A stretch of 64,000 nt of DNA, taken from contig JBAZTA010000004.1 of NCBI GenBank assembly GCA_041662125.1, forward strand, positions 128,343-192,342, written 5' to 3'. This DNA comes from Candidatus Omnitrophota bacterium. GTDB lineage: Bacteria; Omnitrophota; Gorgyraeia; Gygaellales; Profunditerraquicolaceae. The notes under the pieces are model-generated. The model worked only from the letters and a program-made list of their open reading frames with translations. It searched no databases and was not told the DNA's origin. Position numbers and translations under genes: made by a program. Of the stretch, positions 8,397-63,687 are shown piece by piece (positions within the stretch are counted from its first letter, which is position 1; every line of letters begins with the position of its first letter).

Positions 8397-8503
8397 TTGA
8401 TAGCACAATCCAGTCAATTGTGCGGCGTTTTAAGTTTAGTTAAAATTGGAGGTATGCGAGAAGTGTGTGCATACCTTTTTTTATTTTAAGGAGGATACAA
8501 ATT

Positions 8504-19595: not shown

Positions 19596-19623
19596 AATAT
19601 AAATATATCTTGTGGTTGAGTTG

Positions 19624-21123: not shown

Positions 21124-21124
21124 A

Positions 21125-43975: not shown

Positions 43976-44371
43976 ATGAAATTCCAGAAAGGGATAATTC
44001 TTTTCGGCATTATTGAAATCTGTATCGGTATGTTCATGTTCTGTGATACTTTTGTATACATGCTTGCCGGCAAACCCGCCAGGCCTCCCGAAGTTGTCAC
44101 GTTCATTTTAACCACTTCTTTAATCTCCGCTGGCCTTGGTGTCGGGATATTACGTTACCATATCCATAGCTACCATCTCCTTTTGTTCTTTTCTTGCGTC
44201 ATCATATTGAGTAAGATCCTTATTTTCGGGCATATTATTAGTTTAAACGACGCGTTAGAAACGCAGTTCCCGTTTACGCCCAGGAATATTGTCTCTATTA
44301 TGTATCATGGGATCCTGATCGCCTATTTTATTCACCCTGTAATTAAAAAACGATTTAAGGAAATAGTATGA
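43976..44371 (+). CDS. Hypothetical polytopic membrane protein (131 aa)
   Basis: Four hydrophobic helices; overlaps the start of the next gene. Confidence 0.45.
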   Translation: MKFQKGIILFGIIEICIGMFMFCDTFVYMLAGKPARPPEVVTFILTTSLISAGLGVGILRYHIHSYHLLLFFSCVIILSKILIFGHIISLNDALETQFPFTPRNIVSIMYHGILIAYFIHPVIKKRFKEIV

Positions 44372-46638
44372 TGCGGTGGCTACCCGGAAAAAATTTTTGG
44401 TTGCGTTTAGATGGCATCCTTGAAAAAGCAGTGATTTTCGGCTTGTTTTGTTTGATCTTTCTTTTAGTCCACAAAGCGGTTTTTGACCTGGATATATGGC
44501 TGCATTTGAAAGCGGGCGAATTGATCGTCCAGCAAGGGAGAGTCCCGCATAGTGATGTTTTTTCATTCCCGCTTAATGGCAAGCCCTGGCTTGACCATGA
44601 GTGGCTTTTCCAGGTCGCAGTATATTTTGTATATACGAAGTGGCAGGCTGATGGGCTGGTCTTAATGCAATCGTGCTTGATCATGCTCTCGTTTTGGGTG
44701 TTATTTTTAATAGGCCGCCGGTCAGCGAAGTCGTATCTGGAGATCGTTTTCTTGATTTTTATGGTAGCGTATGCCTCTTACACGCGCTACAATATCCGGC
44801 CTGATATGATCAGCCTGCTTTTCTTTGTTCTGTTCTATTATGCCCTGATGTTCTACAGAAACAAAAAAACAATTTGGCTGCTTTTGCCTCTGCAGGTTAT
44901 TTGGGTGAATTGCCATGGATATTTTTTCCTGGGACCGCTCCTGATCTTTTTCTTCATTTTTGCCGAATTTGTCCGGCGAAACAGCCCTTGGCTTCCTTTC
45001 CATTGGAAAGAAGAAGGTGCCGTATCCAATAAAACTTATGATCGGTTAAAGAAGTTGTTATGCTTGGCGGTAGTGTTTTGTTTAGTTAACCCCTATGGCG
45101 TACGCGGCGCGTTATACCCGTTTTTTGTGGTTAAAGAGCTTTTGTTGGGCAAGGTGGGAATTTTCTTAAAGCATATTCATGAGCTGTATCCGACATGGAC
45201 AAGGGGTAACGTGTTGGCGAACTTTCTTTACTTTAAGGTTTTAACGGTGTTTTGTGTCGTTACTGTAGCGGCTCATTTTCGGCGGTTAAAAATTATCGAA
45301 GCTATACTTATTGTTTTCTTTTTCCTGTTTGCGCTTTCGATGCGCAATATCCCGTTCTTCGCGGTTATCTGCTATTGTATCATTATTACTTATATCAGCG
45401 GCAGTATGACGTTGGTATTGACTAAACTTCAGAGGCGGTTTCGTTTGAAAAGCAGCGTTTTCGTGATCGCCCGCGTCTTGATTGCCTGCGCATTTATTCT
45501 CTTAGTTTGGCAGCGTATTCAGGGGATCCTTGACCAGAGCTACTATGATTTTGACAGCTATGAGTTTAAGAGTTTTCTTTCAGGGGTCGATACCCGTCAA
45601 TATCCCGAGAAAGCGGTTACATTTGTATTGGAAAATAATTTTCCCGCGCGAATGTTCAATGATTTTAATTCGGGCGCATATTTTATCGGGAAGACGTTCC
45701 CCCGCCGCAAAGTTTTTATTGACGGCCGCACCGAACTTTACGGCCCGGAATTCTTTAAGCAATATGTGAATATGCTTGATAATGAGGGGGCTGCTTTTGA
45801 TACCGCGGAAAAAACATATCGTTTGGAGGCAGCCTTCATAGAAATTTTAGCAGGCAATTTCCCGGCATTGATTAAACGTTTGTATAAAAGCCCGCAATGG
45901 AAATTGGTGTATTTTGATGACCGGGCAGTTGTTTTTCTGAAAGACACATCATCTAACCGCGTGTTGTTGCAGAAGTTTGGCATTGATCTGCGCGGGTATT
46001 CTTTCCCCCAAGCCGATGTGCGTAAGGTAGGCGCAAAACAGTTATATCCTACGGTACAAATGCAGCTGGCAGCATTATTTAACTTCCTTGAAATCGATGA
46101 TTTGGTGGTGGCCGGTGCCCGTGAGGCTTTGCGCATTATGCCTCATTGCGCTGAAGCGTATACCTTGTTAGGTAAAGTCAATATGCGTAAAAAGCAATAC
46201 GCCCAAGCGTATGAAAATTTTCGCATAGCCGCGGTATATTTGCCAAGGGTTCCCGGGATATTAGTTGATTTGGGCGAAAGTTTGTGTGAGTTAGATGATA
46301 CGAAAAGCGCGCTTACTTATTTTGAACGCGCCCTTAAAGGAAACGCCCTGTATGCTCCGGCGTATCATGGTTTGGGTTGTGTGTATTTGAAGCAGGATAA
46401 CGTGGAAAAGGCCTTGAAAGTTTTGCGCCGGGCAGTACAGCTTGAAGCGAAAGAGCCAAAATATTATCTTAAGCTTGGCGAAGCTTTGTTTGAAAAAGCC
46501 CGAAAAACCGGCGGCGCCGCCATTTTCTTGGAAGCTAAAAAGCAGCTTGATAAAGCGTTAGAGCTGTCCGTCGATAAAGAAGAATTAAAAAAAGACATCT
46601 TGGCCGCGCAAGAAAAGGTGAAAGCGGCCGGCTTTTAA
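44368..46638 (+). CDS. Large polytopic membrane protein with C-terminal TPR repeats (756 aa); possible GT-C-type glycosyltransferase or polymerase
   Basis: At least ten TM helices in the N-terminal 400 aa (loop motif LDHEWLF); C-terminal soluble region with at least four TPR repeats. Confidence 0.6.
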   Translation: MMRWLPGKNFWLRLDGILEKAVIFGLFCLIFLLVHKAVFDLDIWLHLKAGELIVQQGRVPHSDVFSFPLNGKPWLDHEWLFQVAVYFVYTKWQADGLVLMQSCLIMLSFWVLFLIGRRSAKSYLEIVFLIFMVAYASYTRYNIRPDMISLLFFVLFYYALMFYRNKKTIWLLLPLQVIWVNCHGYFFLGPLLIFFFIFAEFVRRNSPWLPFHWKEEGAVSNKTYDRLKKLLCLAVVFCLVNPYGVRGALYPFFVVKELLLGKVGIFLKHIHELYPTWTRGNVLANFLYFKVLTVFCVVTVAAHFRRLKIIEAILIVFFFLFALSMRNIPFFAVICYCIIITYISGSMTLVLTKLQRRFRLKSSVFVIARVLIACAFILLVWQRIQGILDQSYYDFDSYEFKSFLSGVDTRQYPEKAVTFVLENNFPARMFNDFNSGAYFIGKTFPRRKVFIDGRTELYGPEFFKQYVNMLDNEGAAFDTAEKTYRLEAAFIEILAGNFPALIKRLYKSPQWKLVYFDDRAVVFLKDTSSNRVLLQKFGIDLRGYSFPQADVRKVGAKQLYPTVQMQLAALFNFLEIDDLVVAGAREALRIMPHCAEAYTLLGKVNMRKKQYAQAYENFRIAAVYLPRVPGILVDLGESLCELDDTKSALTYFERALKGNALYAPAYHGLGCVYLKQDNVEKALKVLRRAVQLEAKEPKYYLKLGEALFEKARKTGGAAIFLEAKKQLDKALELSVDKEELKKDILAAQEKVKAAGF

Positions 46639-46666: not shown

Positions 46667-46945
46667 ATGGTACAAAATGAAAAAATAGAGAGAGGATTCA
46701 TGCGGAAATATATAGGATTTTTTACCATATCCAGCATAGTTATAAAAATACTTGCCTGGATTTTTTTATGCCTTGGTATTTTGGCAGGCGTTGCAGTGTT
46801 CTATCGGCCGGTGCCGGGATATACCTGGATATCAGGGGCATTTGTTTTGGGTATCTACGGTTTTATCGCTTTTTTATTGTATTTGCTGGGGCTTCTCTCA
46901 GGTGTAGCAGCCAAAATTATTGATAAGATCGAAAAAAGTGAATAA
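46667..46945 (+). CDS. Small membrane protein (92 aa)
   Basis: Two TM helices. Confidence 0.4.
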   Translation: MVQNEKIERGFMRKYIGFFTISSIVIKILAWIFLCLGILAGVAVFYRPVPGYTWISGAFVLGIYGFIAFLLYLLGLLSGVAAKIIDKIEKSE

Positions 46946-46961
46946 TCAGAAGGAGGATAGT

Positions 46962-47879
46962 ATGCGATTCTGGAGTGTCGTGTTAGTAGGAGTTGTCTTT
47001 ATGTTCTCAGGGATTATTGGGTGCGATAAAATAAGCGATATGATGAAGCCTAAGAAGAAAGAAGTTGTATCGGCTCTCGTTGTTACCCCGGCAGTAAAGG
47101 GTACGGTCATTGCCAAGGTAAATAATCTGCCGCTTACATTGGAAGAATTGAACCAGGAAGTTGACGCGGAAAATTCCATGGTTAATAAAGACAGGCCTGA
47201 AGATAAGATAACGACGCGTGACCAGAAGATTAAATATTTGAAGGAGCGTTTGATCCGCCGCGTGCTTCTTTTCCAGGAGGCAAAGAACCGGGGGTTAGAG
47301 AGAAAAGAAGAGATCCTTCAGGCGTTGGAGAAAACCAAGCAGGATCTTTTAGTGGTGGAACTGGTGCGCCAGGAAGCAGAGAAGGTTGATGTGGCATCAT
47401 CTGAAATAGAGGAATATTACAATACGTATCAAGCGCAGTTGAAAGATCCTGAAGAAAGGCGTATCCGGGAAATAGGCGTTAGCTCTGAGCAGGAAGCTAA
47501 AGAAGTATTGATCCAGTCATTGCAGGGAACTGATTTTGCCGCAATGGCCCGTGAGAGGTCAAAATTAGCCAGCGCAAAAGACGGCGGCGACCTGGGTTAT
47601 CTTAAACCAAATGTTAAATCTGCCCAATTTAACGCGATGGCGTTCTCAAGTTCGCTTGAAAAAGGACAGACAAGCAATATTTTTAAGAATTCAGACGGGT
47701 ACTATTATATAGTTAAAATAGAAGATATCCGCGGCGGGGCACAGAAGACCTTGACTGAAATGTGGGAGGATATTAAACGGGGGCTAACTTTTTTAAAGCA
47801 GGAGAGAAAGATCGAAGACCTGATCAGTAAGCTTTCCGGCTCCGCAAAAATAGAGATTTACGAAGGGGAAGTTAAATAG
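46962..47879 (+). CDS. Lipoprotein peptidyl-prolyl cis-trans isomerase (parvulin-type, SurA/PrsA-like)
   Basis: RBS AGGAGG; lipobox FSGIIGC; SurA-like helical N-domain; PpiC domain (GGDLGYLKPN..., GYYYIVKIEDIRGG). Confidence 0.75.
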   Translation: MRFWSVVLVGVVFMFSGIIGCDKISDMMKPKKKEVVSALVVTPAVKGTVIAKVNNLPLTLEELNQEVDAENSMVNKDRPEDKITTRDQKIKYLKERLIRRVLLFQEAKNRGLERKEEILQALEKTKQDLLVVELVRQEAEKVDVASSEIEEYYNTYQAQLKDPEERRIREIGVSSEQEAKEVLIQSLQGTDFAAMARERSKLASAKDGGDLGYLKPNVKSAQFNAMAFSSSLEKGQTSNIFKNSDGYYYIVKIEDIRGGAQKTLTEMWEDIKRGLTFLKQERKIEDLISKLSGSAKIEIYEGEVK

Positions 47880-47924: not shown

Positions 47925-48812
47925 ATGCAAAGACAGAAAATCATGCTTATTGCAGGTATCGTGTTATGCGGTTTGACAGCGTTCATGGTCAAGGTATTCA
48001 TTGACCAGCAGAAACAGGAAGTTATTGAAAAAGCCAAAAAGCAATTGCAGGAAATCCAGGCAAATTCTTCTACGGTATTAGTGGCAAGTGTTGATATTCC
48101 CCGGGGATCGCCTATCAACGCGGACTCTCTGGAAACAACTATTATCCCGAATCAATTTATTCAGCCGAATGCGGTGAACGCGTTAAGCAGGATAGAGGGG
48201 ATGATCACTATGGCGCCGATCGCAAGAGGAGAGCAGGTTACCTTAAGTAAGCTTATGCAGTCCCGCCAAGCTGATGGCCTGGCAGACACCACTCCGATAG
48301 GCAAAAGGGCGATTACTATTACCGTGGATAATATTTCTTCTTTAGCGGGCATGCTGAAACCAGGTGATTATGTGGATGTTATTGCCGCTTTAGCCTTGCC
48401 CATGCAGGGCCCTAATGGAACCGTTGCTTCGCAGCCAGCGGTAATTCCTCTTTTCCAAAATATCCAAGTTCTGGCTGTAGGTCAGGAATTAACCTCAAAG
48501 ACCAAAGGGGAATCGCGGTACAAAAAAGAAGAAACTAAAGAAGCATCGCCCTTGATCACGCTTGCGCTTACTCCGCAGGAATCAAATCTTATTGCTTTTG
48601 TGCAGGAACAGGGCAAGATCCGTTTGGTAGTTCGGTCTCCCGCGGATTCTCAGGTACAGCCGTTTCAGCCGGTCGGCTGGGACGCGCTTATGCAATATAT
48701 TATGCCGCAGCTGGGAGAGCCAAAAGTGGAGGAAGTGAAAGTCCCGGATGAGTATGTAGAGATATACCGCGGTTTAAATAAAGAAACAGTAATTTTGCCT
48801 AAAGAAAATTAA
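47925..48812 (+). CDS. cpaB: Flp pilus assembly protein CpaB/RcpC
   Basis: N-terminal TM anchor; SAF-like domain; position at the head of the tad operon. Confidence 0.75.
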   Translation: MQRQKIMLIAGIVLCGLTAFMVKVFIDQQKQEVIEKAKKQLQEIQANSSTVLVASVDIPRGSPINADSLETTIIPNQFIQPNAVNALSRIEGMITMAPIARGEQVTLSKLMQSRQADGLADTTPIGKRAITITVDNISSLAGMLKPGDYVDVIAALALPMQGPNGTVASQPAVIPLFQNIQVLAVGQELTSKTKGESRYKKEETKEASPLITLALTPQESNLIAFVQEQGKIRLVVRSPADSQVQPFQPVGWDALMQYIMPQLGEPKVEEVKVPDEYVEIYRGLNKETVILPKEN

Positions 48813-48817
48813 AACAT

Positions 48818-50458
48818 ATGAAAAAATATCTTGCTGTATTGCTGGTTGCCGGGGGATTTTTGTTATTCGCGCGGGCTCACGCGTTAAGCGCGAGAGACTC
48901 TGAGCTTCGTATGTATGTGGGGGAGGTCCAGATCATTCAGGTTAATAATCCAACCCGTGTTATGATCGGTAATCCGAATGTGATCGATGTCAGCAATGTG
49001 GGCAGAAAAGAAATGACAGTCAGCGCCAAAGCTCCCGGTAAAACAACGCTTGTGTATTGGGATACCCTCGGGGAACAGTCATTGAATATAAAAGTACTCG
49101 CGGAGGATTTAGACGCAATTAAAGCCCGGGTTGATAATTTGATCGCGACACTGGGGTATCAGGAAGTCGTCAGCCAGGCTGAAGAAGAAGAAGGGAAAGT
49201 TTACCTTTTGGGGAGATTAAAAACATCTGCTGAGAGAGAAAGGCTTCTGAGCGGGTTAGGTTCTTTGAAGGATAAGGTCAATGACCTCATTGTTGTCCTG
49301 GAAGAATCTGCGGTCGTTGAGATCGATGTTCAGGTGCTTGAATTGAACAAGGATGCCAGTAAAAGCCTCGGCTTTACCTGGCCGAGCGCCATCAATCTTC
49401 TTGAACAGGGCTCGCCTGGGTTGAACGATAGCGGCACAAAATTCTCGACGCTCTTTAAGGTTTTAAATTTACAGAGAGGTACTGTTGATGGCGCGGACCC
49501 GTTTACTTTTAAATTATCAGCATTAGTTCAGGAAGGAAAAGCCCGTATTCTTTCCCGCCCAAAGCTTTCTTGTCAAAGCGGCAAAGAAGCAGAAATGCTT
49601 GTCGGAGGGGAAAAGCCGGTGTTTAGTAGTTCAGTTGTATCCGGAGGAGGGACCAGCACGAGTGTTTCCTATAAGGAATACGGGATCAGGTTAAACATTA
49701 AACCTACGGTAACAGCAAAAGAGCAGATCAAGGTCGGCCTCAAGGTGGAGGTAAGTGAAGTTGGGACAGCTGAGACGATCGGCGCTGAGAATGCTCCTTC
49801 GGCAAAAGCCTATCCGCTCCTTAAACGCACTGCTTCAACTGAGCTTTTTCTTGATAACGGCCAGACACTTGCTATCGGAGGATTGATCAAGCAAAAGACC
49901 GAAACAGATGTAAGGAAAGTTGCCGGACTTGGGGATATTCCTGTCTTAGGGATGTTTTTCCGTAATAAAAGTTATAAAGAAGGCGGCGGGCAGGGGGAGC
50001 GGGGTGATTCGGAATTATTCATTACTTTAACGCCTACTATTGTTTCCCGGGATATGGGGGTAGCGCCAGTAATTAAGCACGTTGAAGCTCCATCGGCAGG
50101 GAAGGTAATAGATCTTGAAGCAGAAAAGCCTTCTGCTGAAACGCCGGTACGGGTAGAAAAAGCGCCTGACCCGTTAGATCATTACGCTCGTGTTGTTAAA
50201 GAGCGTATTATGAGCAGCCTGACATATCCGGAAGTGGCCAAATCCGCTGGTTTTCAGGGTACGGTAAAATTAAGCCTGAAACTTACTTATACAGGGCAGC
50301 TTTTAGAGGCGGTACTCAAGAAGTCTTCGGGTTATCAGGTCCTTGATGATCATGCTTTATCGGTGGCAAAAACTATCGCGTATTATCCGCCTTTTCCTCC
50401 CTCGATTGGCCTGCAGGAAATTTGGATAGACGTCCCAATCGGCTATCATTTAGAGTAA
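48818..50458 (+). CDS. cpaC: Tad secretin CpaC/RcpA with a C-terminal TonB_C-like domain fusion
   Basis: Signal peptide and secretin domain (...RPKLSCQSGKEAEMLVGGEKPV..., GDIPVLGMFFRN). The C-terminal ~90 aa (YPEVAKSAGFQGTVKLSLKLTYTGQLLEAVLKKSSGYQVLDDHALSVAKTIAYYPPFPP) match the TonB C-terminal domain consensus. Confidence 0.85.
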   Translation: MKKYLAVLLVAGGFLLFARAHALSARDSELRMYVGEVQIIQVNNPTRVMIGNPNVIDVSNVGRKEMTVSAKAPGKTTLVYWDTLGEQSLNIKVLAEDLDAIKARVDNLIATLGYQEVVSQAEEEEGKVYLLGRLKTSAERERLLSGLGSLKDKVNDLIVVLEESAVVEIDVQVLELNKDASKSLGFTWPSAINLLEQGSPGLNDSGTKFSTLFKVLNLQRGTVDGADPFTFKLSALVQEGKARILSRPKLSCQSGKEAEMLVGGEKPVFSSSVVSGGGTSTSVSYKEYGIRLNIKPTVTAKEQIKVGLKVEVSEVGTAETIGAENAPSAKAYPLLKRTASTELFLDNGQTLAIGGLIKQKTETDVRKVAGLGDIPVLGMFFRNKSYKEGGGQGERGDSELFITLTPTIVSRDMGVAPVIKHVEAPSAGKVIDLEAEKPSAETPVRVEKAPDPLDHYARVVKERIMSSLTYPEVAKSAGFQGTVKLSLKLTYTGQLLEAVLKKSSGYQVLDDHALSVAKTIAYYPPFPPSIGLQEIWIDVPIGYHLE

Positions 50459-50472: not shown

Positions 50473-52635
<2,163 letters not shown>

Positions 52636-52721: not shown

Positions 52722-53090
52722 ATGCTGATAAAGAACGAAACAAAAAATACGGTCTTAGCTGATAAAGCGGTTATAGCTAATACGCTTTTAAAGCGTATGA
52801 AAGGCTTGCTTGGTGAAAAAGAATTAGCAAGAGGGAAAGCGCTTGTTTTAGAGCCCTGTAATGCAATACATTGTTTTTTTATGCGTTTTACCATAGATGT
52901 TTTGTTTCTTGGGAAAGATAATCGTGTGGTAAAGGCCCTTCCTGAAATAAAACCGTTTCAGTTCTCTAAGATTTATTGGGGAGCTGTTAAAGTAATTGAA
53001 TTGCCTGCCAATACAATCAAGTCTACTCAAACTTCCGATGGTGATATTATCACCTTTGTAAATGTCCAATCTGGTTCTACCCCTTTCTAA
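52722..53090 (+). CDS. DUF192 (COG1430) family protein
   Basis: ...KGLLGEKELARGKALVLEPCNAIHCFFMRFTIDVLFLGKDNRVV matches the DUF192 GLM-R...GMLF...FWMKNT..LDIIF pattern. Confidence 0.55.
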   Translation: MLIKNETKNTVLADKAVIANTLLKRMKGLLGEKELARGKALVLEPCNAIHCFFMRFTIDVLFLGKDNRVVKALPEIKPFQFSKIYWGAVKVIELPANTIKSTQTSDGDIITFVNVQSGSTPF

Positions 53091-54830: not shown

Positions 54831-55036
54831 TTGAGTGTCACAGCTACGGCAGCGAAAAGGCAATTCTGCTAGGAGGTAGCAGATGCGCAAAGCCACGGGA
54901 CGAAGTAATGCTCGCCGGAAATATGTGTTTTTTTCCTTTGTTTATTGCATCGGGTCACATGCGAGTACGTTAACCGGGTTACCGAAAGCCGTTAGGGATA
55001 TTTGGTAATGCGGTTTTTTTATTTATGGAGTTTATA

Positions 55037-55240
55037 ATGAGTTTTGAAAAGACTTTTAGAAGTAAGAAGGCACAGGCAGTCGTCGAATATATTGTTATAT
55101 TTGTTGTTTTAACGTTCGCGATCCTTTTGGCTTTTGGAGGGCTTAATTTAGGCGACTCCCGCGGTAATAATTCTAAGGTGAATATGAAATCTACATTTGA
55201 CACGGTAGTGGATAATGCCGTGGCGCAAATAAAGGATTAA
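55037..55240 (+). CDS. flp: Flp-family prepilin (class III signal peptide)
   Basis: KKAQAVVEYIVIFVVLTF matches the Flp motif G/A-xxxx-EY followed by a hydrophobic helix. Confidence 0.65.
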   Translation: MSFEKTFRSKKAQAVVEYIVIFVVLTFAILLAFGGLNLGDSRGNNSKVNMKSTFDTVVDNAVAQIKD

Positions 55241-55241
55241 G

Positions 55242-55553
55242 ATGAATAAAAAAGGAGTTATAACGATCGAGTTTTGTATGTTGATTATCCTGTGCGCGGT
55301 ATCAGGCATTTGTATGATGGGGTATTTAAAAGGCGCTATCGCAGGCGGCTGGCATGCCAACGCGGATAGCTTTTCTGATGACCAATATGATGATGCAAGC
55401 AGCACGCTTAATTATACTAAAACTGAAGGGCCGACTGTCACTATTACTGATGTTATGACGGCTAAGACAGCAGGTGGAACTTCTCTCTCTGAAGGCGCGA
55501 ATGATGATGGGATGATTATTTACAGCAATTGGGGGAGCGCAGGTGCTTACTAA
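55242..55553 (+). CDS. TadE-like pseudopilin (103 aa)
   Basis: KKGVITIEFCMLIILCAV TadE-like N-terminal motif. Confidence 0.6.
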   Translation: MNKKGVITIEFCMLIILCAVSGICMMGYLKGAIAGGWHANADSFSDDQYDDASSTLNYTKTEGPTVTITDVMTAKTAGGTSLSEGANDDGMIIYSNWGSAGAY

Positions 55554-55734
55554 AAGAAAAAAAATTATTTTTAACAAAACTTTTTTCCGAGGGCAAAGTG
55601 TGTTAGAATATGCTTTGTTGATCATTACTGTTGCAGCTGTATTTATCGCCATGAACCTGTATATTCGCAGGTCTGTAAATGCCAGGCTGCATAATATGGA
55701 AATTGAGATCAGTCCGCCTATAGCGGTTAATTAA
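55543..55734 (+). CDS. flp: Flp-family prepilin (63 aa)
   Basis: FFRGQSVLEYALLIITVAAVFIA. Confidence 0.7.
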   Translation: MLTKRKKIIFNKTFFRGQSVLEYALLIITVAAVFIAMNLYIRRSVNARLHNMEIEISPPIAVN

Positions 55735-55772
55735 CCGGGGCGGATTTAACAAAAAACGAGGAGGTGAGAAAG

Positions 55773-55958
55773 ATGATGGTGAGCAAGAAAAAAGGTCAGT
55801 CAACCTTGGAGTATGTATTGATTTTAACAGCGGTTATCGCGGGGATAATATTTGCGACTACTCAGTTTATTCAGCCGCGGGTGCAGTCTTCCGTGAACCA
55901 TGTTACGAATCAGATGAACGCTATGGTAAGCAGGATTTCTTTTCCTAATGGGACCTAA
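55773..55958 (+). CDS. flp: Flp-family prepilin (61 aa)
   Basis: RBS GAGGAGGTG; KKKGQSTLEYVLILTAVIAGIIFA. Confidence 0.75.
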   Translation: MMVSKKKGQSTLEYVLILTAVIAGIIFATTQFIQPRVQSSVNHVTNQMNAMVSRISFPNGT

Positions 55959-55997
55959 GATCGACGCAGGTGTATATTTTATAAGGAGGTGGAAGCA

Positions 55998-56333
55998 ATG
56001 ACTCGAAAATGGAGGAAGAGGGCGCAAACAACTGCCGAGTACGCGATATTGATCGCGCTGGTTATCGGCGCAGTGGTTGCGATGCAAATTTATGTAAAAA
56101 GAGGGATACAGGGCCGGATTAAAGAAACGGTGGATTTTGTCGGGACAAACGGTACTGTAGGCAATAGTAATTTTAGTTTTACGACCAATCAGTATGAGCC
56201 TTATTATATTTGTTCGACATCCAATAGTAATCAGAATATGGTTGAGAACCAAAATTATCAAGCAAACGGCAATGTTGCTAGAAATACAACGGCAAATTCT
56301 AGAGTTAATCGTACGCAAACGATGGGATGGTAA
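55998..56333 (+). CDS. flp: Flp-family prepilin with long Asn/Thr/Ser-rich C-terminal tail (111 aa), type A
   Basis: RBS AAGGAGG; KRAQTTAEYAILIALVIGAVVAMQIYVKRG. Paralog of 56742-57080. Confidence 0.75.
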   Translation: MTRKWRKRAQTTAEYAILIALVIGAVVAMQIYVKRGIQGRIKETVDFVGTNGTVGNSNFSFTTNQYEPYYICSTSNSNQNMVENQNYQANGNVARNTTANSRVNRTQTMGW

Positions 56334-56357
56334 TCTGAAAGCGAGGTGAATAAGACA

Positions 56358-56705
56358 ATGTTTATTCGTTTAACGAAACGAGCTCAAAGCACCTTGGAAT
56401 ACGCGGTGATCATCGCGGTTGTGGTAGGGGCGCTCATTGCGATGCAGGTATATGTAAAAAGGGGTTTACAGGGAAGGCTGCGTCAGGCAAGCGATGATAT
56501 CGGCGACCAATTCTCTCCCGGTGTTACAACAACCAGCTATACTACGGTAAGTAATGTCACTACTCGTGAATGGGTTAATAAGGCTATAAGCGGCGCGACT
56601 AACATGACGGGGACAAAAACAGACAGTACTCAGAATCAAAGACGAAACGGTACTGAAAACGTCGCTGCTCAAAATAGTGAATGGTGGTTTACAAACGGTT
56701 CATAA
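56358..56705 (+). CDS. flp: Flp-family prepilin with long C-terminal tail (115 aa), type B
   Basis: TKRAQSTLEYAVIIAVVVGALIAMQVYVKRG. Paralog of 57103-57444 and 57467-57796. Confidence 0.75.
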   Translation: MFIRLTKRAQSTLEYAVIIAVVVGALIAMQVYVKRGLQGRLRQASDDIGDQFSPGVTTTSYTTVSNVTTREWVNKAISGATNMTGTKTDSTQNQRRNGTENVAAQNSEWWFTNGS

Positions 56706-56741
56706 GTGCGTTTTGGCAGAAGACATAAGGAGGTGGAAGCA

Positions 56742-57080
56742 ATGACGCGAAAATGGAAGAAGAAAGCACAAACAACTGCTGAATACGCGGTATTGATCGC
56801 GTTGGTTATCGGAGCAGTGGTTACGATGCAAATTTATGTAAAAAGAGGCATGCAAAACAGGATAAAAAATGTGGTTGACCATACTGGAGCGGGTAGTTTA
56901 CTGGTTGGCAATCGGACTTTTACTCTTTCCGGCAATCAGTATGAGCCTTATTATGCTAATACTCATGCTAATACTCAGCAAAGGTCGGGAGAAGACGCTC
57001 GAATGCAGTATGGAGGCGCTGTTAATAGGATATCGAATTCACAGTCCAACGCAATAAGAAATGGTACGACGGGTTTTTAA
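56742..57080 (+). CDS. flp: Flp-family prepilin, type A paralog (112 aa)
   Basis: The first ~45 codons are near-identical at nucleotide level to 55998-56130; the C-terminal tail diverges. Confidence 0.75.
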   Translation: MTRKWKKKAQTTAEYAVLIALVIGAVVTMQIYVKRGMQNRIKNVVDHTGAGSLLVGNRTFTLSGNQYEPYYANTHANTQQRSGEDARMQYGGAVNRISNSQSNAIRNGTTGF

Positions 57081-57102
57081 TGTAAAGGGGGTGAATAAGA
57101 CC

Positions 57103-57444
57103 ATGTTTATCCGTTTAACGAAACGAGCTCAAAGCACCTTGGAATACGCGGTGATCATCGCGGTTGTGGTAGGGGCGCTCATTGCGATGCAGGTATATGT
57201 AAAAAGGGGTTTACAGGGAAGGCTGCGTCAGGCAACTGATGATGTTGGAGATCAATTTTCTCCGGGTAACACCAATTACCATTATGTAACAAATAGTTAT
57301 GTTGACAGTGATGAAAGATCTGCCGGCGGGAGTTATTTTTCTAATACGATCCCTACAGCAACGACCATAAGCAACCAAAGCCAGAACCGCACGGGCAATG
57401 AAAGAGTTTTGAATCAAACTAATGAACACTGGATAGCGCCTTAA
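57103..57444 (+). CDS. flp: Flp-family prepilin, type B paralog (113 aa)
   Basis: The first ~55 codons are identical to 56358-56520 at nucleotide level; the tail diverges. Confidence 0.75.
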   Translation: MFIRLTKRAQSTLEYAVIIAVVVGALIAMQVYVKRGLQGRLRQATDDVGDQFSPGNTNYHYVTNSYVDSDERSAGGSYFSNTIPTATTISNQSQNRTGNERVLNQTNEHWIAP

Positions 57445-57466
57445 TAATGGCTGACTCGAAGGGAAT

Positions 57467-57796
57467 ATGCTGATACAATTACGCAACACCAGAGGACAGA
57501 GTATAATGGAATATGCGGTCCTTTTAAGCATTGTGGTCGGGGCTTTAGTTGCCATGCAGGTTTACGTTAAGCGCGGCTTGCAGGGAAGAGTCAGGGATTT
57601 AGCTGACCAGATCAGTCCCACGCAGTACGAAGCAGGCCAGACCGAATCACAATATATGACAGTCCAGAGCGGGACCGTTTCGGAAAGTTATAACCAGGGT
57701 ATTTCCCGCCGCTATCAAGACGGAACGAATAATTCGACCGCGGAAACGATGGTGAAAAATGGATCTGAAACAACATATCCAGAAGAAGCGGATTAA
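57467..57796 (+). CDS. flp: Flp-family prepilin, type B-like (109 aa)
   Basis: NTRGQSIMEYAVLLSIVVGALVAMQVYVKRGLQGR. Confidence 0.7.
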   Translation: MLIQLRNTRGQSIMEYAVLLSIVVGALVAMQVYVKRGLQGRVRDLADQISPTQYEAGQTESQYMTVQSGTVSESYNQGISRRYQDGTNNSTAETMVKNGSETTYPEEAD

Positions 57797-58535
57797 AGGG
57801 CAGGCAACAACAGAACTGGCGGTTGCCGGCGTCATCATTATTATGATGCTGGGGTATTTGATGCAGCAGGGGTTTGTGTATAACAGCCGCCAGGCGCTTG
57901 AGATGTATACGTTCCGCCGCGCCCTGCAGTTAACTAAGAGTTCGGAACGGGGAGTAAACCTTACCGTAACCCGCGACCTGATCGTCCCTTCGTTTTTCTC
58001 AAGCATTGGCCGCCAGCGTATTCAAGCCGCCAGTTCCGTGGAAATAAACCCCTGGATCATCTGGATGGCAAAAGAAGATGAGCCGCAGGATATCGGCACC
58101 TACCAGGTCCTTCAACTCGATGAAAAAATGATCAGGGATAACCAGTATGTATTGATCCCTCCTACATTAGCCAAAATCAAACAGGCAGATGACGAAGAAG
58201 ACCCTGAATGGATGTGGGTCCCTTCGCCGGTACGCGAAATTGACCCGCAAACAGCCCTTACCTTACCGGCTAAAACCGCGGCTTATTCTTATACAACAAA
58301 CATTAGTGAAAACAGGACTACTAAAGAGAAAGAAACTACTAAGACATTGACCAGCCAGGATATTATGCAGAGAGGGATAACGTTTCAAACTGCTGCTAAA
58401 ATGAAAGCGGATTATCTCAAAGACCCTGATATTGCTAGCGCGGAGGTGAATGGAGGGAGTATTCCGGACTCTGCGATTATTACGATCGATGAAACAGTGA
58501 CAAAAACAAAGAACGTAAGGACACCGTATGATTAA
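57759..58535 (+). CDS. TadE/TadG-like pseudopilin (258 aa)
   Basis: KRIKGQATTELAVAGVIIIMMLGY N-terminus followed by a large soluble domain. Confidence 0.65.
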   Translation: MDLKQHIQKKRIKGQATTELAVAGVIIIMMLGYLMQQGFVYNSRQALEMYTFRRALQLTKSSERGVNLTVTRDLIVPSFFSSIGRQRIQAASSVEINPWIIWMAKEDEPQDIGTYQVLQLDEKMIRDNQYVLIPPTLAKIKQADDEEDPEWMWVPSPVREIDPQTALTLPAKTAAYSYTTNISENRTTKEKETTKTLTSQDIMQRGITFQTAAKMKADYLKDPDIASAEVNGGSIPDSAIITIDETVTKTKNVRTPYD

Positions 58536-58547
58536 TAAATTAAAGGA

Positions 58548-60077
58548 GTGTCTATGAACCGCAAGAATAAATCACAGGTGATATTAGAATTTGTGCTGGT
58601 GATTGTAACGCTGGCAATTCTTGCGGTTGCCTCAATGCGTCTTTTTTCAAACTTTAATCTTAATATGATTAATCGTATCGATAAATTCAAGGAAAGCCGG
58701 GTTATCGCGGTCAATACCCCCGGCGCAGCCCCTATTTCTCCGGTTGCTTTCCTTGATTACTCTCCGTATAGAGATATTACTGTGCCCGGAGCGGGGACGA
58801 TCCTTCCACCTTTTATCCCGGGAGAATATGATGATGCGCGCTTTGATGAAGCTAACCGTTTGTTTGAAGAGTCAAATGACCTTATACTCGTAACCATCCC
58901 TTATTTTGCAAGCCGGGCGTATGCATCTTTAGGGGGGGCTAATAATTCTGCCGCCTATATTGAGGCTAATATAACTGAAAGCGTTATGCGCTCAGCTTTA
59001 GCCGATTGCCAAGCTATGGAATCACCCCGGCAACAGGCATATGATGACTTCTTTGAAGATATGAGTGGCGTTGACGCTGACCATGATACTTTTGTTGGAG
59101 GGATCGGTTTATTACAGCAGGTTTTGAGCAATCCTAAAATACCCGGTTTATATGACCCGAATCCGGAGAATAATCCGGCGAAATATGGGTATACTGCCGC
59201 AGACACGGCAGCTTTAGCCGCGCTTAAGGCTAAGAATATTGAAAATCGTGAACAACTTCAAGACATCATTACGAGCATTAAAAGTACTAAGTCTGCTATG
59301 GATAATTTATTGGTTACTACAACAAAACCGTATGGCCTTATACGGCCGGAAATAAATCAATCTATATCGCATCTTGATAATGCTACTACTGATGATGCGA
59401 TAGATCAATGGCAGCGTTGGCAATTCGCGATAAATACGGTTCGTCCACAATGTTTTTGTGGACCACCTCCGGGGACAAGTTGTCATGAGTGTTGTGATGG
59501 TGAATATTGTGTCGGTTGTTCGTATGACAATTGCTATCAAGAGTATGATGATCCTGATACCAAGGTTCATGAGGCCGAGATAATTTATGCTTCAGCGGCA
59601 GCGGTTGAAAGTGGGTATTTAGCGTCGTTTGTTGGGCATATTCAAAGAACAAGTAATTACAGCGATATTTGGCTCGATGCGACTTCTGCAAAAAACGCCT
59701 TAAAACGTATTATTGATTATGCCGGGGAAATCAGCGTTGTGCCTGCGGAAATGGAAAATAATTTGCGTAATAAAGTTGATGAATTAGACGGTTTTGTTAC
59801 CAGTGCTCCTTCCAGGAATGATATTATCCGCGCGGTTACTGCTTGCGATGATATGCTTGTTATTATAAAGCAAGTTGAGATAGAAGATGCAAAAATAATA
59901 TATACGCCCCCGGCTAAAGCCCCGGACTATACCTATTTAAAGAACCTTATCACTCAAATTAAAACCGCGCTTTCCAGTGCCCTGATCAATTGGGAAGATG
60001 CTTCATCGCGCGATACGTATATTGCCAGCGCGCGGAAAAAGATAGATCGTTTGGTAGAGATAATAGCATTACGGTAA
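58548..60077 (+). CDS. Large TadE/G-like pseudopilin (509 aa) with Cys-rich motif; candidate tip adhesin
   Basis: Pilin-like N-terminus NKSQVILEFVLVIVTLAILAVA; central FCGPPPGTSCHECCDGEYCVGCSYDNCY (8 Cys in 28 aa). Confidence 0.6.
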   Translation: MSMNRKNKSQVILEFVLVIVTLAILAVASMRLFSNFNLNMINRIDKFKESRVIAVNTPGAAPISPVAFLDYSPYRDITVPGAGTILPPFIPGEYDDARFDEANRLFEESNDLILVTIPYFASRAYASLGGANNSAAYIEANITESVMRSALADCQAMESPRQQAYDDFFEDMSGVDADHDTFVGGIGLLQQVLSNPKIPGLYDPNPENNPAKYGYTAADTAALAALKAKNIENREQLQDIITSIKSTKSAMDNLLVTTTKPYGLIRPEINQSISHLDNATTDDAIDQWQRWQFAINTVRPQCFCGPPPGTSCHECCDGEYCVGCSYDNCYQEYDDPDTKVHEAEIIYASAAAVESGYLASFVGHIQRTSNYSDIWLDATSAKNALKRIIDYAGEISVVPAEMENNLRNKVDELDGFVTSAPSRNDIIRAVTACDDMLVIIKQVEIEDAKIIYTPPAKAPDYTYLKNLITQIKTALSSALINWEDASSRDTYIASARKKIDRLVEIIALR

Positions 60078-60090
60078 AGGGGAAAAAAGT

Positions 60091-61146
60091 ATGATGCGAT
60101 TTTTGAGGAAGGAAAATGGCCAGGTGTTCCCCTTTATGATCATCATCGTGGTTATCATTATACTGGCCATTGTTGCGACCATGCTCCTGGGAGAAGTGGG
60201 GTTTAATCGTATCCGTTTAAGCAATGTTATTGATTCGGCTGTCCTTTCTCCGACATCAGGGTTTTGCCGCTCGCTTAATCAGATAGTCAAGATCAGTTTC
60301 GGCGATGGAGGGTTACTTCAGAAATATATCGCCCTGCAGGTTTTTTTCCTGAAGCCTTTTAAGCCGGCAATTTGCCCTTGCGACGGGATTCCCTATCCGT
60401 TTACCTGGCAGTTCATTTGGAGTCCGTTTATTATGCCTTTTTACATACAAACTTTAATTGAGATCTTTCAGCTTTATGAATCAGCTGAAGATATTGCGGA
60501 AAAAGCCCCTGAAGATCTACGCAAAGGTATTCTTGACCGCGCAATGGGAGGGGCTTTGATCGATGAGGCTAAGCCTTTTAGATCGAGCGAAGTGACCCGT
60601 GATTCTAACGGCAAGATCACTGCTTTAGATTATAATGCGTATTTGGATCGCGATTCTCATTTTGATGAAGTATACCGTACACAGAAATCAAGCCTCTGGT
60701 CGGGGGATCGTGCGACCTATGCCTGGAATAAAAAATACTGGAAGAATAAATCAGCGGGCACATTCTATAAACCCGGGGTTTTAGAGACGAGCTGTGGGTC
60801 GTGCAGCGATAGCGACTACGGCAGTTATTTAGATGTTAATTTCGTTAATGTTCCTCGCAACGTATCAATTAGCGCGCAGTTCATGCCGTTGTTTTATCTT
60901 TGGCAAAAAGTTATCCCCGGATATCCGAAATGTTATTGTATTGTTTTACCCGGGTTTGCTTTTGATCCCTATGCCTGGATCAGTAACATAAATATCGATA
61001 GCAAATCGTATGGCCTTAACGTGCGTAAGAAACTTGATTATCAGGATTTGACTTTTTTTGGCAGGCAGCCGATTATTACCCACAAGAACCAGGTAAGAAT
61101 TCACGGCTCGGTACAAACAGGGTATGATTTTGGATTGGAGAGTTAA
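60091..61146 (+). CDS. TadG-like pilus assembly protein/pseudopilin (351 aa)
   Basis: KENGQVFPFMIIIVVIIILAIVATMLL Tad_N-like N-terminus; Cys pairs in the C-terminal domain. Confidence 0.6.
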   Translation: MMRFLRKENGQVFPFMIIIVVIIILAIVATMLLGEVGFNRIRLSNVIDSAVLSPTSGFCRSLNQIVKISFGDGGLLQKYIALQVFFLKPFKPAICPCDGIPYPFTWQFIWSPFIMPFYIQTLIEIFQLYESAEDIAEKAPEDLRKGILDRAMGGALIDEAKPFRSSEVTRDSNGKITALDYNAYLDRDSHFDEVYRTQKSSLWSGDRATYAWNKKYWKNKSAGTFYKPGVLETSCGSCSDSDYGSYLDVNFVNVPRNVSISAQFMPLFYLWQKVIPGYPKCYCIVLPGFAFDPYAWISNINIDSKSYGLNVRKKLDYQDLTFFGRQPIITHKNQVRIHGSVQTGYDFGLES

Positions 61147-61149
61147 GAT

Positions 61150-61938
61150 ATGGGAAGGTTTTTGGCAGTAACCATAGTAATGTTTTTTTTCTTGGCGCGC
61201 CACGCTTGCGCGGAAAACCGTGAACTGCGTAATATCCCTTTACCGGACAACTCTGAGGTTGTCGCGCTGGATACGCCGTTCCAGCTTAATGACCGTCAGG
61301 GAAATTTGAGCCGGCTGCGTTCATTTAAAAAACCGCAGGAAATCATTGATTTTTATCAGGGCTATTTTGTAAAGAATGGGTGGGAGTTTGTTTCCTATAA
61401 AGAGGAATGGCGGACACTTTTTTTGAAGAAAGGCGATGAGAATTTGTATGTGCAGGTCAATGATCATGGGGATGCGCTGCCTGCGGATGTGTATATCGCG
61501 ATGAGCCGCCAGGACCTGGCGGTTTGCCCGCAGATGAAAGATGTTTATGCGCAGGAACAGATCGCTCCTGATGTCCTGGGGAAAGACTTTCCCGATATCA
61601 TGCGTTATCCCGGAAGCAAGCGCCGAGTCAATATGTTCCCGGATGCCAATAAAGGAATGGTGGTTTATGAGGCGCAGGCTGAGGTTGCCGAGGCAGCCGC
61701 GTTTTTTTATAATACCCTGAAGGCGCAAGGATGGGATGATAATCCGGCGTTTACTAAAGGTTTCCAGAAGCAGAAGAATCCTGATCTCAAAGATACCAAG
61801 ATCATGTTTTTTGAAAAAAATCTGGAAACGGTGATCATTAATATTTATCGCGTCTCTGAATCGAAAGGGAAGGCGCGCGTCTTAATCTCTATTTTAAAGA
61901 ATATGACCGGAGATGTTGCTATGCCGGCAATGCAGTAA
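61150..61938 (+). CDS. Secreted hypothetical protein (262 aa) within the tad locus
   Basis: Signal peptide MGRFLAVTIVMFFFLARHACA. Confidence 0.5.
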   Translation: MGRFLAVTIVMFFFLARHACAENRELRNIPLPDNSEVVALDTPFQLNDRQGNLSRLRSFKKPQEIIDFYQGYFVKNGWEFVSYKEEWRTLFLKKGDENLYVQVNDHGDALPADVYIAMSRQDLAVCPQMKDVYAQEQIAPDVLGKDFPDIMRYPGSKRRVNMFPDANKGMVVYEAQAEVAEAAAFFYNTLKAQGWDDNPAFTKGFQKQKNPDLKDTKIMFFEKNLETVIINIYRVSESKGKARVLISILKNMTGDVAMPAMQ

Positions 61939-61951
61939 GGAGGAGTAGGAA

Positions 61952-62800
61952 ATGTTTTTTCTTATTATTCTTTTAATCATCGCTTCGATCATGCTGATCA
62001 TTTTCGGGACCATGCCGACATTCTTCGATAAGATGAAGATCTGGAGTGAGAACAAAGAAAAGAATATGGAAATAGAAATGGACCGTCTTTTTTATTATGA
62101 TAAGAGCCCTAAACAGATCATGCGCCTTTATTTTATCCTGCCGCCTATTTTAGGGGCAGCGGGTTTTATCTTCACCCAGAATATGATTTTTGCCGGTATA
62201 GGGGTTTTCTTAGGTTTATTGATCCCCAATGTCGTCTTAAAATTCAGGGATTCGCTGCGCCGGATGAAATTCAACAGCCAGATACTTGACTCGATCCTGA
62301 TCCTTTCCTCTTCTTTAAAAGGAGGGTTGTCTCTTTTACAGGCATTTGAAGTTTTAGTGGATGAGATCCCGCCGCCGATGAGCCAGGAGATGGGGCTGGT
62401 CGTGCGCGAGAATAAGATGGGTGTTTCTATGGAAGAGAGCCTGAGGCGTTTAAGTAAACGAATGACGATGGATGAATTGACCCTTGTCGTTAACTCTATC
62501 CTGGTGGCCCGGGAGACCGGCGGTGACTTGACCAAAGTCTTTAGCCGCCTGACGACCACGATACGGGATAACAATAAATTGAAAGATAATGTCAGGACAT
62601 TAACGCTTCAGGGAAGGCTGCAGGGTATTATCATGTCGGTTATCCCTTTTGTGTTTATCTGGTGGGTTATTACCTTTAACCGCGAGCATTTTAATATTAT
62701 GCTTCAGAGCGATACCGGCAGAGGCCTCTTGGTGCTGGCACTTGTTTTGCAGTCCATTGGCATGGTGTTGATAAAAAGATTTAGCAGCGTAAAGATTTAG
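61952..62800 (+). CDS. tadB: Flp pilus assembly inner-membrane platform protein TadB (T2SSF domain)
   Basis: N-terminal TM helix, T2SSF domain (LLQAFEVLVDEIPPP...LTLVVNSILVARETGGDL) and C-terminal TM helices. Confidence 0.85.
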   Translation: MFFLIILLIIASIMLIIFGTMPTFFDKMKIWSENKEKNMEIEMDRLFYYDKSPKQIMRLYFILPPILGAAGFIFTQNMIFAGIGVFLGLLIPNVVLKFRDSLRRMKFNSQILDSILILSSSLKGGLSLLQAFEVLVDEIPPPMSQEMGLVVRENKMGVSMEESLRRLSKRMTMDELTLVVNSILVARETGGDLTKVFSRLTTTIRDNNKLKDNVRTLTLQGRLQGIIMSVIPFVFIWWVITFNREHFNIMLQSDTGRGLLVLALVLQSIGMVLIKRFSSVKI

Positions 62801-62808
62801 GAGCCGCA

Positions 62809-63687
62809 ATGATCGAAATGATCTATATATGTGTTATCGCAGGGATGGGCCTTATATTCTTTGGTATATTCGGGGTGCCCAGTACAACGATCAGAAGGGT
62901 CAGGCTTCCTGAGGCGGCCAATAAGGAAAAATCCATTAGAATGCACTCTTTCCTTTATTATGTTTTTCCTTTTACCAAGAAATTATTAGAGAGGCTCAGG
63001 CTTCAGGAAAAGACCAAGAATAGGGTGGATGCTGCTCACGTCAAGCTTTTAGCGGAAGAATTCTTTAATCTCAAGATCCTTTCGGCGATTTTGTTCGGAT
63101 CATTGAGTTTTTTCTTTACGAATAAATTCGAGCCGGGAATGGTTACAATTTCTGCTGCGATTGGGTTTATCATTCCGGATATATGGCTTAATAAGAAGAT
63201 CCACCAGCGTAAGAATAGTATTGTCCGGCTTTTGCCTGAAACCGTTGACCTGCTGGGCCTCTGCGTTGAGGCAGGCCTTGATTTTGCCACGGCAGTCAAA
63301 TGGATCATTGAGAAAACCGCGATGAACCCGATGGTGGAAGAGTTAGCCTTTGTTTTAGAGGAGATAAAGTGGGGTAAGCCCCGCAGCCAGGCATTAAAAG
63401 ATATGTCTAAACGGCTGAATATTATGGAAGTCAGTTCTTTTGTGCATACGCTGGTGCAGGCTGAGCGTATGGGAACTCCGGTTGCTGAGGCCTTTGCCAT
63501 ACTTTCTGAAGATGTCAGGCTGCAGCGTTTCAGGAGAGGCGAACGTATTGCTTTGCAGGCTCCGATGAAGATACTTATTCCGCTTATTTTTTGTATTCTG
63601 CCGGTTATTGCCATTATTATCGGCGGGCCTATATACTTGCAGTTTATGGATGGCGGATTACTTAACAGTGTAGGGGTAGGCAAATAA
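62809..63687 (+). CDS. tadC: Flp pilus assembly platform protein TadC (T2SSF domain)
   Basis: T2SSF domain (LPETVDLLGLCVEAGLDFATAV...FVHTLVQAERMGTPVAEAF) with flanking TM helices. Confidence 0.85.
   Translation: MIEMIYICVIAGMGLIFFGIFGVPSTTIRRVRLPEAANKEKSIRMHSFLYYVFPFTKKLLERLRLQEKTKNRVDAAHVKLLAEEFFNLKILSAILFGSLSFFFTNKFEPGMVTISAAIGFIIPDIWLNKKIHQRKNSIVRLLPETVDLLGLCVEAGLDFATAVKWIIEKTAMNPMVEELAFVLEEIKWGKPRSQALKDMSKRLNIMEVSSFVHTLVQAERMGTPVAEAFAILSEDVRLQRFRRGERIALQAPMKILIPLIFCILPVIAIIIGGPIYLQFMDGGLLNSVGVGK

Follow-up and report, generated by a model that had tools for sequence, protein, structure and literature searches.

A TonB C-terminal domain fused to the Tad secretin of the Omnitrophota

A 64,000-nucleotide stretch of a Candidatus Omnitrophota bacterium genome (assembly GCA_041662125.1, contig JBAZTA010000004.1, positions 128,343 to 192,342; hereafter the window) encodes a secretin of the Tad (CpaC/RcpA) type that carries a linker and a TonB C-terminal (TonB_C) domain behind its barrel. 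The open reading frame (ORF), at 48818..50458 on the plus strand, starts with ATG and encodes 546 amino acids (aa); it was found exactly where an earlier note, made from the letters alone, had placed it, and lies inside a complete Tad/Flp cluster with cpaB/rcpC, cpaF/tadA and tadB/tadC.

The protein begins with a Sec signal peptide (residues ~1–25, MKKYLAVLLVAGGFLLFARAHA followed by L; 48818..48892, plus strand), recognised by inspection and modelled by AlphaFold2 (AF2) as a helix over residues 2–25. This peptide is weakly conserved (24% mean identity), is neither of the lipoprotein type nor a TonB-type membrane anchor, and is followed in the AF2 model by a beta-rich N-domain. The pilus-formation N-terminal domain T2SS-T3SS_pil_N (PF13629; residues 28–93, 48899..49096, plus strand; Pfam 49.5 bits, predicted local distance difference test (pLDDT) score ~90) is present in place of the N0/STN domain of the type II secretion system (T2SS), type III secretion system (T3SS) and PilQ secretins. 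The Secretin beta-barrel domain (PF00263; residues 235–409, 49520..50044, plus strand) scores 127.4 bits in Pfam against a cutoff of 27.5, while the NCBIfam equivalog models for GspD, PilQ, MshL and SctC all fall far under their cutoffs for this ORF. The nearest solved chains to the barrel are 8jvb (E 4.5e-29) and then Pseudomonas aeruginosa RcpA (8odn, E 5.8e-25), and the T2SS and PilQ secretin structures match more weakly than RcpA. Domains, closest solved relatives and locus agree that the protein is a member of the Tad secretin family, which bears out the assignment made in the earlier note. If it assembles as RcpA does, it would form a 13–14-mer outer-membrane channel for the Flp pilus.

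Instead of the short TadD-binding tip of RcpA, the C-terminus consists of 137 aa made up of a linker and TonB_C, as had been proposed. The flexible linker (residues ~411–451, 50048..50170, plus strand) is some 40 aa long, rich in E, K, A, P and S, disordered in the AF2 model and poorly conserved in the alignment. It joins the outer-membrane barrel to a TonB_C-fold globule with an N-terminal helix (residues 452–546, 50171..50455, plus strand; Pfam core 468–545) that was recognised by Pfam, NCBIfam, AF2 and Foldseek. The peptide YPEVAKSAGFQG...YYPPFPP corresponds to residues 470–528 and is followed by 18 more residues to the end of the protein (...GYHLE). The junction between secretin and tail lies in one open frame, with no stop codon and no homopolymer tract.

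Two curated profile libraries recognise the domain. Pfam TonB_C (PF03544), the check suggested in the earlier note, matches residues 468–545 of the full protein with 50.7 bits (curated cutoff 24.6) and reaches 54.4 bits (E 1.8e-14) when the last 115 aa are scanned alone; NCBIfam TIGR01352 (tonB_Cterm) agrees, with 48.5 bits (cutoff 27.1). The AF2 model of residues 440–546 has a mean pLDDT of 90. The full-length AF2 model, a monomer built with a 64-sequence alignment as input, is confident in the N-domains and the barrel, falls below a pLDDT of 50 at residues 413–448 and rises to 90–96 in the C-terminal globule (450–546; 90–98 for residues 452–546 across this and the tail model), which has an alpha-alpha-beta-beta-alpha-beta topology. 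When the tail model was compared with the PDB using Foldseek, the best 25 matches were all C-terminal domains (CTDs) of TonB, HasB, FusB or TolA, headed by the Helicobacter pylori TonB CTD (6sly; template modelling (TM) score 0.72, E 9e-6), which was again the top match in a sequence-only search of the PDB. The profile and fold matches are far beyond chance, and a fortuitous motif match is ruled out by the two libraries together with the fold search. A TolA-like identity was also rejected, as the TolA models reached 21.6 bits, under the cutoff, and the TonB CTDs fit better structurally. These results establish the identity, the fold and the tethered topology of the tail.

Over 156 aligned domains, the hallmark positions of TonB_C are kept in 86–100%, and those of the motifs YP (470–471) and SSG (503–505) in 86–99%. 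Per-site retention is 86% for Y470, 97% for P471, 100% for G493, 87–99% for S503-S504-G505, 98% for D510, 91–94% for F526 and P527, and 98% for P540. In the 64-sequence alignment, pairs of sequences are on average 55% identical in pil_N, 58% in the next N-domain, 70% in Secretin and 55–57% in TonB_C, which thereby equals the N-domains, and 16% (15.9%) identical in the linker. TonB_C forms the extreme C-terminus of the family, with a median of 0–1 residue beyond it. The tail is thus a globular domain under purifying selection, carried on a freely evolving tether.

Searches of the sequence databases revealed that the fusion is the standard form of the Tad secretin across the Omnitrophota, phylum-wide. 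PF13629, PF00263 and PF03544 are present together in 120/120 of the best 90%-identity clusters (50–84% identity). Searching 1.84 billion 50%-identity representatives with HMMER gave 300 proteins at E <= 1e-30; among the best 150 of these (30–60% identity), secretin and TonB_C were both found with family hidden Markov models (HMMs) in 145, and Pfam TonB_C was found in 72 of 75 sampled representatives. Four of the five exceptions are 302–417 aa long, a length at which they may be fragments or lack a tail, and the fifth (P0259) has 620 aa. With one genome taken per GTDB species, a relative of the secretin is encoded in 328 genomes. The best 80 of these match nearly the whole query at 45–84% identity, and in 79 of the 80 the match extends through the end of TonB_C; in the sole exception (L044) it stops at residue 498, six bases before the end of the DNA. 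Every TonB_C-matching ORF in the 1.3 Mb of related loci and the window, 85 in all, is a secretin ORF.

The genomes with the fusion are nearly all titled Omnitrophota or Omnitrophica, including one single-cell genome (L069), and the phylum-named matches carrying TonB_C all bear one of these two names. Odd titles are 'uncultured Planctomycetales' (45–84% identity), 'bacterium', one Margulisiibacteriota (55%) and one Patescibacteria (48%). Based on the identity to the window protein and a gene order that is the same in most of them, we read these as mislabelled bins or catch-all names, which is not proven.

The linker between barrel and TonB_C varies from 14 to 355 aa across the family (median 39) and is rich in E, K, A, P and S. 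Since the shortest linkers have 14 aa, the target of TonB_C must be near the outer membrane. Seven members (P0069, P0163, P0169, P0170, P0174, P0247 and P0261) carry two tandem TonB_C domains, and extra sequence beyond TonB_C is found in P0247 and P0269.

Outside this group, many CpaC secretins that are not from the Omnitrophota (P0298–P0386) have C-terminal tails of ~95–310 aa without a globular domain; the tails are Pro/Ala-rich and then, in most, have a K/E/A/Q-rich stretch resembling domain II of TolA and TonB. A cryptic TonB_C in these tails was considered and rejected, as they are of low complexity and do not match the family HMM. Some other CpaC homologues, of which those with a named source are from the Armatimonadetes, have an N-terminal LysM plus BON domains; being N-terminal or internal, the LysM and BON modules were rejected as counterparts of TonB_C in position. 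Tad secretins are thus often extended, and the TonB_C head is confined, among the matches seen, to a group whose phylum-named members are all Omnitrophota.

The gene order of the Tad cluster, all of it on the plus strand, is near-invariant. Directly upstream of the secretin lies the CpaB/RcpC alignment-complex gene (47925..48812; Pfam RcpC 86.2 bits, and SAF), which holds this position in 71/72 related loci. Directly downstream, in 67/68 related loci, is a TadZ/CpaE-like ParA domain fused to the CpaF/TadA ATPase (50473..52635; Pfam AAA_31/ParA at residues 3–235, T2SSE at 367–651). In the window this ParA/MinD-type domain and CpaF/TadA form one 720-aa ORF that starts 15 bp past the secretin stop, and in the same 67 of 68 loci the gene behind the secretin likewise encodes a fusion of 650 aa or more. 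TadZ/CpaE and CpaF/TadA are separate proteins in model Tad systems. The order is also kept in the Pfam-annotated contigs of divergent members, with CpaB and secretin swapped in one.

Upstream of cpaB, the first gene of the cluster (46920..47879) encodes a SurA/PrsA-like peptidyl-prolyl isomerase (PPIase; Pfam Rotamase and SurA_N) that is a probable lipoprotein (lipobox IIGC). Its likely true start is M15, which gives a lipoprotein signal (…FSGIIGC followed by DK), and the 'GCDK' motif is present in eight homologues inspected. The PPIase gene is upstream of cpaB in 63/66 related loci, a lipobox-like motif being found in 56/68. This conserved probable lipoprotein, overlooked in the earlier note, may serve as a dedicated foldase of the secretin or the pilins or as a factor in their assembly.

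Beyond the ATPase gene follow two conserved genes, for a DUF192 protein (52722–53090, plus strand), found downstream in 57/66 related loci, and for a 526-aa protein without a Pfam family (53187–54767, plus strand; 530–815 aa in relatives), neither of which is a recognised Tad component. The remainder of the cluster (55025..63687, plus strand; translations and Pfam) comprises ~9 Flp-like pilin ORFs, TadE/TadG-like proteins, a secreted 262-aa protein, TadB (61952–62800, T2SSF) and TadC (62809–63687, T2SSF). Pfam matches in this region are weak for Class_IIIsignal, TadE and Tad, and T2SSF is found twice; two of the ~9 pilin-like ORFs have a weak Pfam match. The row of Flp-like pilins (55025–57796, plus strand) includes a tandem duplication of a two-gene unit (55989–56705 and 56706–57444), in which the N-terminal halves are near-identical and the C-terminal halves divergent.

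A 756-aa protein that spans the membrane several times and ends in tetratricopeptide repeats (TPRs) is encoded a short way upstream of the cluster (44368–46638, plus strand). It recurs in about nine related loci, ~4.1–4.5 kb upstream of the secretin, and could be an enzyme of the glycosyltransferase type with pilins or the envelope as its target. Between the Tad cluster and a trio of genes for a FIST sensor, a histidine kinase and a REC-GGDEF response regulator (18666–22381, minus strand) lie ~24 kb occupied by polysaccharide, haem and radical-SAM genes; in two divergent Omnitrophota loci (L081 4904–8652 and L083 4065–7673) the same trio stands immediately upstream of the cluster. This placement suggests control of the Tad machine by cyclic di-GMP. 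The trio is adjoined by an IS200-like (Y1_Tnp) transposase (18106–18597, plus strand), which may be tied to the rearrangement that parted it from the cluster. Elsewhere in the window are a 1114-aa subtilase (8465–11809, plus strand; Peptidase_S8 and a fervidolysin-like prodomain), a 1535-aa protein (13318–17925, plus strand) with no significant Pfam family, and several ORFs at 1687–7661 that likewise match no Pfam family.

The ORFs of the Tad cluster and ~30 other large ORFs of the window were scanned with Pfam. No TadD-type TPR lipoprotein, OmpA-like CpaD, ExbB/ExbD, TolQ/TolR, Pal or TonB-dependent transporter was found among them, in line with the earlier observation that no TadD- or RcpB-like partner is visible, and genes for a TPR lipoprotein, an OmpA-like protein, ExbB/D or TolQ/R were also absent from two Pfam-annotated divergent loci. 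Two TPR proteins of the window were considered as TadD-like pilotins and rejected, both being unlike a TPR lipoprotein of ~250 aa: the 756-aa protein is a multi-pass membrane protein with its TPRs at the C-terminus, and a 475-aa TPR protein (22799–24226, minus strand) carries a transmembrane helix at its N-terminus and lies outside the cluster.

The identical protein (P0001) is public, as 'MAG: TonB family protein [Candidatus Omnitrophota bacterium]' at NCBI and as 'pilus assembly protein CpaC' at JGI, and the name 'TonB family protein' is also attached to more than a dozen of the listed homologues. A TonB family energy transducer was rejected: TonB_C is present, but the N-terminal membrane anchor is missing and no ExbBD context was found, so the NCBI name is misleading. 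It hides the Tad secretins of the Omnitrophota from keyword-based surveys, a systematic misannotation that is corrected here.

No description of a secretin–TonB_C fusion was found in the literature searched, which misses most subscription journals. The main Omnitrophota genomics paper discusses RcpA without mentioning the fusion, and secretins go unmentioned in a 2025 survey of periplasmic force transducers. A 2026 preprint on giant proteins of the Omnitrophota records 'TonB-domain' genes, not identified as secretins, in 2 of 14 flanking windows, most of which also hold pilus or secretion genes (bioRxiv 10.64898/2026.06.07.730766); these genes may be the Tad secretin–TonB_C protein. The fusion is thus undescribed in the literature searched, as the earlier note had supposed, but it is neither unseen nor peculiar to this genome: it is found throughout the Omnitrophota, has entries in the databases already, and is a combination that domain-architecture databases certainly include.

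What the domain does has to be judged from what is known of other Tad secretins and of the TonB fold. Secretins need help to reach the outer membrane, to assemble in it and to stay fixed there, and the known helpers (pilotins, OmpA-like belts, AMIN and LysM modules) vary by system. Among Tad machines, residues 412–416 of P. aeruginosa RcpA bind the TPR pilotin TadD, which is essential for secretin assembly (PMC10499894). The essential lipoprotein of Caulobacter is CpaD, which is predicted to be OmpA-like and forms a belt around CpaC, and CpaO, the Caulobacter TadD ortholog, is dispensable (PMC13170226). Another contact in P. aeruginosa is made by a beta-hairpin of RcpC with the pil_N N-domain of RcpA (PMC12307814). 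The CTDs of TonB and TolA bind their targets through beta-strand addition (PMC12204202), and within the Ton system it is ExbD that is documented as a peptidoglycan binder (PMC11658791).

The accessory protein differs between Tad lineages, a tethered domain occupies the corresponding end of the Omnitrophota secretin, and no accessory gene was found in its locus. On these grounds we tentatively favour a role for TonB_C as a docking or anchoring module in cis, replacing the separate accessory proteins of other Tad secretins, a reading to which we give somewhat less than an even chance. The C-terminus of the barrel, the site that binds TadD in Pseudomonas RcpA, is extended by the ~40-aa disordered, charged and proline-containing tether. 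In a ring of 13–14 subunits like that of RcpA, an equal number of TonB_C heads would hang on the periplasmic side of the barrel. Each head may capture an exposed beta-strand of a partner near the outer membrane, as the CTDs of TonB and TolA do; the partner could be a further component of the Tad machine, a lipoprotein of the outer membrane or an adjacent subunit of the secretin. The contact would position or stabilise the secretin ring or help to assemble it, the job done by the TPR pilotin TadD in Pseudomonas and by the OmpA-like lipoprotein CpaD in Caulobacter. Docking to a protein is preferred to binding of peptidoglycan because it is the only activity established for the fold in the literature consulted. 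The proposal in the earlier note that the domain anchors the channel to the cell wall or to the inner-membrane platform and replaces a pilotin is plausible, although the 14-aa linkers argue against TonB_C reaching the inner membrane.

Several points weigh against a docking module in cis. The genome, of which the window covers 64 kb, could hold a gene for a pilotin or anchor at some other place, and the partner of TonB_C is putative. The upstream lipoprotein PPIase might itself be the assembly factor, TonB_C then having another job. The 25-fold spread in linker length (14–355 aa) is unusual for a fixed protein–protein geometry; a variable linker would suit a diffuse target such as the cell wall, and the tandem TonB_C domains resemble the avidity strategy of cell-wall-binding repeats.

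These last points lead to the strongest rival, in which the secretin is held to the sacculus by its tethered TonB_C heads through direct binding of peptidoglycan. The domain would then be the functional equivalent of the AMIN domains of PilQ, the N-terminal LysM of CpaC homologues or the CpaD belt. We consider a cell-wall anchor unlikely on balance, but the variable tether and the tandem domains fit a diffuse, multivalent ligand and keep the model very much alive. Secretins have repeatedly gained peptidoglycan-binding modules, such as the N-terminal LysM of the Armatimonadetes CpaC homologues; CpaD is predicted to be OmpA-like (PMC13170226), and AMIN domains of PilQ have been discussed (PMC5285504). 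None of LysM, an OmpA-like CpaD or AMIN is present in the scanned Omnitrophota locus. As to the fold itself, the literature consulted documents binding of peptidoglycan by ExbD but not by the TonB CTD (PMC11658791), and the CTDs of TonB and TolA are described as protein binders that act by strand addition (PMC12204202). The LysM of other secretins is N-terminal and so not a positional equivalent of TonB_C, and no peptidoglycan-binding motif was identified. The C-terminus of TonB is reported to bind peptidoglycan in older work by Kaserer et al. (2008).

A second rival inverts the TonB system: a proton motor of the ExbBD, TolQR or PocAB type would engage the TonB_C heads, directly or via an ExbD-like subunit, and the proton-motive force would gate the secretin or localise the machine. 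The precedent is PocAB–TonB3, which is needed for assembly and localisation of the type IVa pilus in P. aeruginosa and for which a TonB3–PilQ contact has been hypothesised (PMC5285504). The periplasmic domains of ExbD and TonB heterodimerise (PMC9389320, PMC11658791), and the E/K/A/P linker resembles domain II of TonB. The scanned window and conserved loci, however, contain no ExbB, ExbD, TolQ or TolR, the protein is without a motor-binding N-terminal transmembrane helix, and linkers of 14–40 aa are too short to reach an inner-membrane complex, all of which makes this coupling improbable. A related and similarly speculative proposal, which we would regard as a long shot, takes the fusion as a 'Rosetta stone': TonB-type heads and pilus secretins would be direct functional partners, the ring being grasped by an ExbD/TolR-like stator or another force-bearing partner. 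If so, secretin gating, localisation or the force of pilus retraction would be coupled to the energised inner membrane, and the long-puzzling dependence of P. aeruginosa type IVa pili on PocAB–TonB3 would be explained.

Less probable still is a receptor for cargo or pilins, in which TonB_C binds a periplasmic substrate by a strand at its N-terminus and passes it to the channel, the substrate being a minor pilin or else a secreted or giant surface protein; the machine would then be partly a secretion system. The giant-protein loci of the Omnitrophota are reportedly flanked by pilus or secretion genes, with 'TonB-domain' genes in 2/14 cases (bioRxiv 10.64898/2026.06.07.730766), and the window has an unusually large set of pilin-like genes. 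This case is purely circumstantial: no TonB-box-like motif was identified in the neighbours, and no giant ORF lies beside the Tad cluster in the window, the 1535-aa ORF being ~29 kb off. Finally, an artefact in which two genes, one for a secretin and one tonB-like, were merged by a frameshift, an overlooked stop codon or a chimeric assembly can be dismissed, as the frame is unbroken at the junction, the same single ORF recurs at 30–84% identity in hundreds of independent assemblies from many studies, including the single-cell genome, and all 85 TonB_C matches in the related loci fall within secretin ORFs; neither circumstance that the earlier note said would undo its claim, a missing TonB_C profile match or a frameshifted separate ORF, was found.

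On the favoured reading of a docking module in cis, the Omnitrophota would add another solution to the problem of helping a secretin, a TonB-fold head in cis at that end of the barrel where Pseudomonas has its pilotin-binding site. The fusion is fixed across a phylum whose members are ultra-small and probably live as predators or episymbionts, with the Tad machine believed to mediate their contact with hosts. Through it the TonB_C fold sits on a protein of the outer membrane instead of a motor of the inner membrane, and a natural fusion is at hand for testing proposed contacts between TonB and secretins.

With RcpA of P. aeruginosa (8odn) and CpaC of C. crescentus, the protein shares the signal peptide, pil_N, the Secretin barrel, with similarity to 8odn at the level given above (E 5.8e-25), and the cpaB/rcpC and cpaF/tadA neighbours in an Flp/Tad cluster. 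RcpA, however, ends at residue 416 in its short TadD-binding tip, whereas the Omnitrophota chain goes on for ~137 aa, and no tadD- or cpaD-like gene was found in its locus. The TadD-binding tip is itself not universal among Tad secretins, Caulobacter using CpaD (PMC13170226).

The likeness to CpaD and TadD is a proposed one, that of an accessory at the periphery or C-terminal side of a Tad secretin that would serve assembly or anchoring. CpaD and TadD are separate lipoproteins with OmpA-like and TPR folds, respectively, whereas the Omnitrophota module is in cis and has the TonB_C fold; and unlike the CpaD belt and the TadD ring, it is flexibly tethered and not packed against the barrel. The AMIN domains of PilQ and the LysM and BON domains of CpaC homologues are envelope-binding modules that, like it, are fused in cis to a secretin, but they are N-terminal and have other folds, AMIN and LysM being recognised peptidoglycan binders.

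With TonB, HasB, FusB and TolA the protein shares the CTD fold (TM score 0.72 for the H. pylori TonB CTD) together with the YP and SSG motifs. The disordered, charged, proline-containing linker ahead of the domain may correspond to the periplasm-spanning, proline-rich spacer of TonB, but it is short (about 40 aa; median 39, range 14–355 in the family) and lies between an outer-membrane barrel and the domain. TonB differs in its N-terminal transmembrane helix with the motor-binding SHLS motif (PMC12204202), which is missing in the Omnitrophota secretin, and no gene for ExbBD or a TonB-dependent transporter was found near the latter in the 64-kb window or the conserved loci. The CTD of TonB is anchored by the inner-membrane ExbBD motor and that of the Omnitrophota protein by an outer-membrane barrel, so that the topology is inverted. 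PocAB–TonB3 of P. aeruginosa resembles the fusion in that it functionally connects a TonB-family protein with the secretin or machine of a type IV pilus, but it acts in trans, from the inner membrane and with an ExbBD-like motor, possibly through a contact of TonB3 with PilQ that is only hypothesised (PMC5285504).

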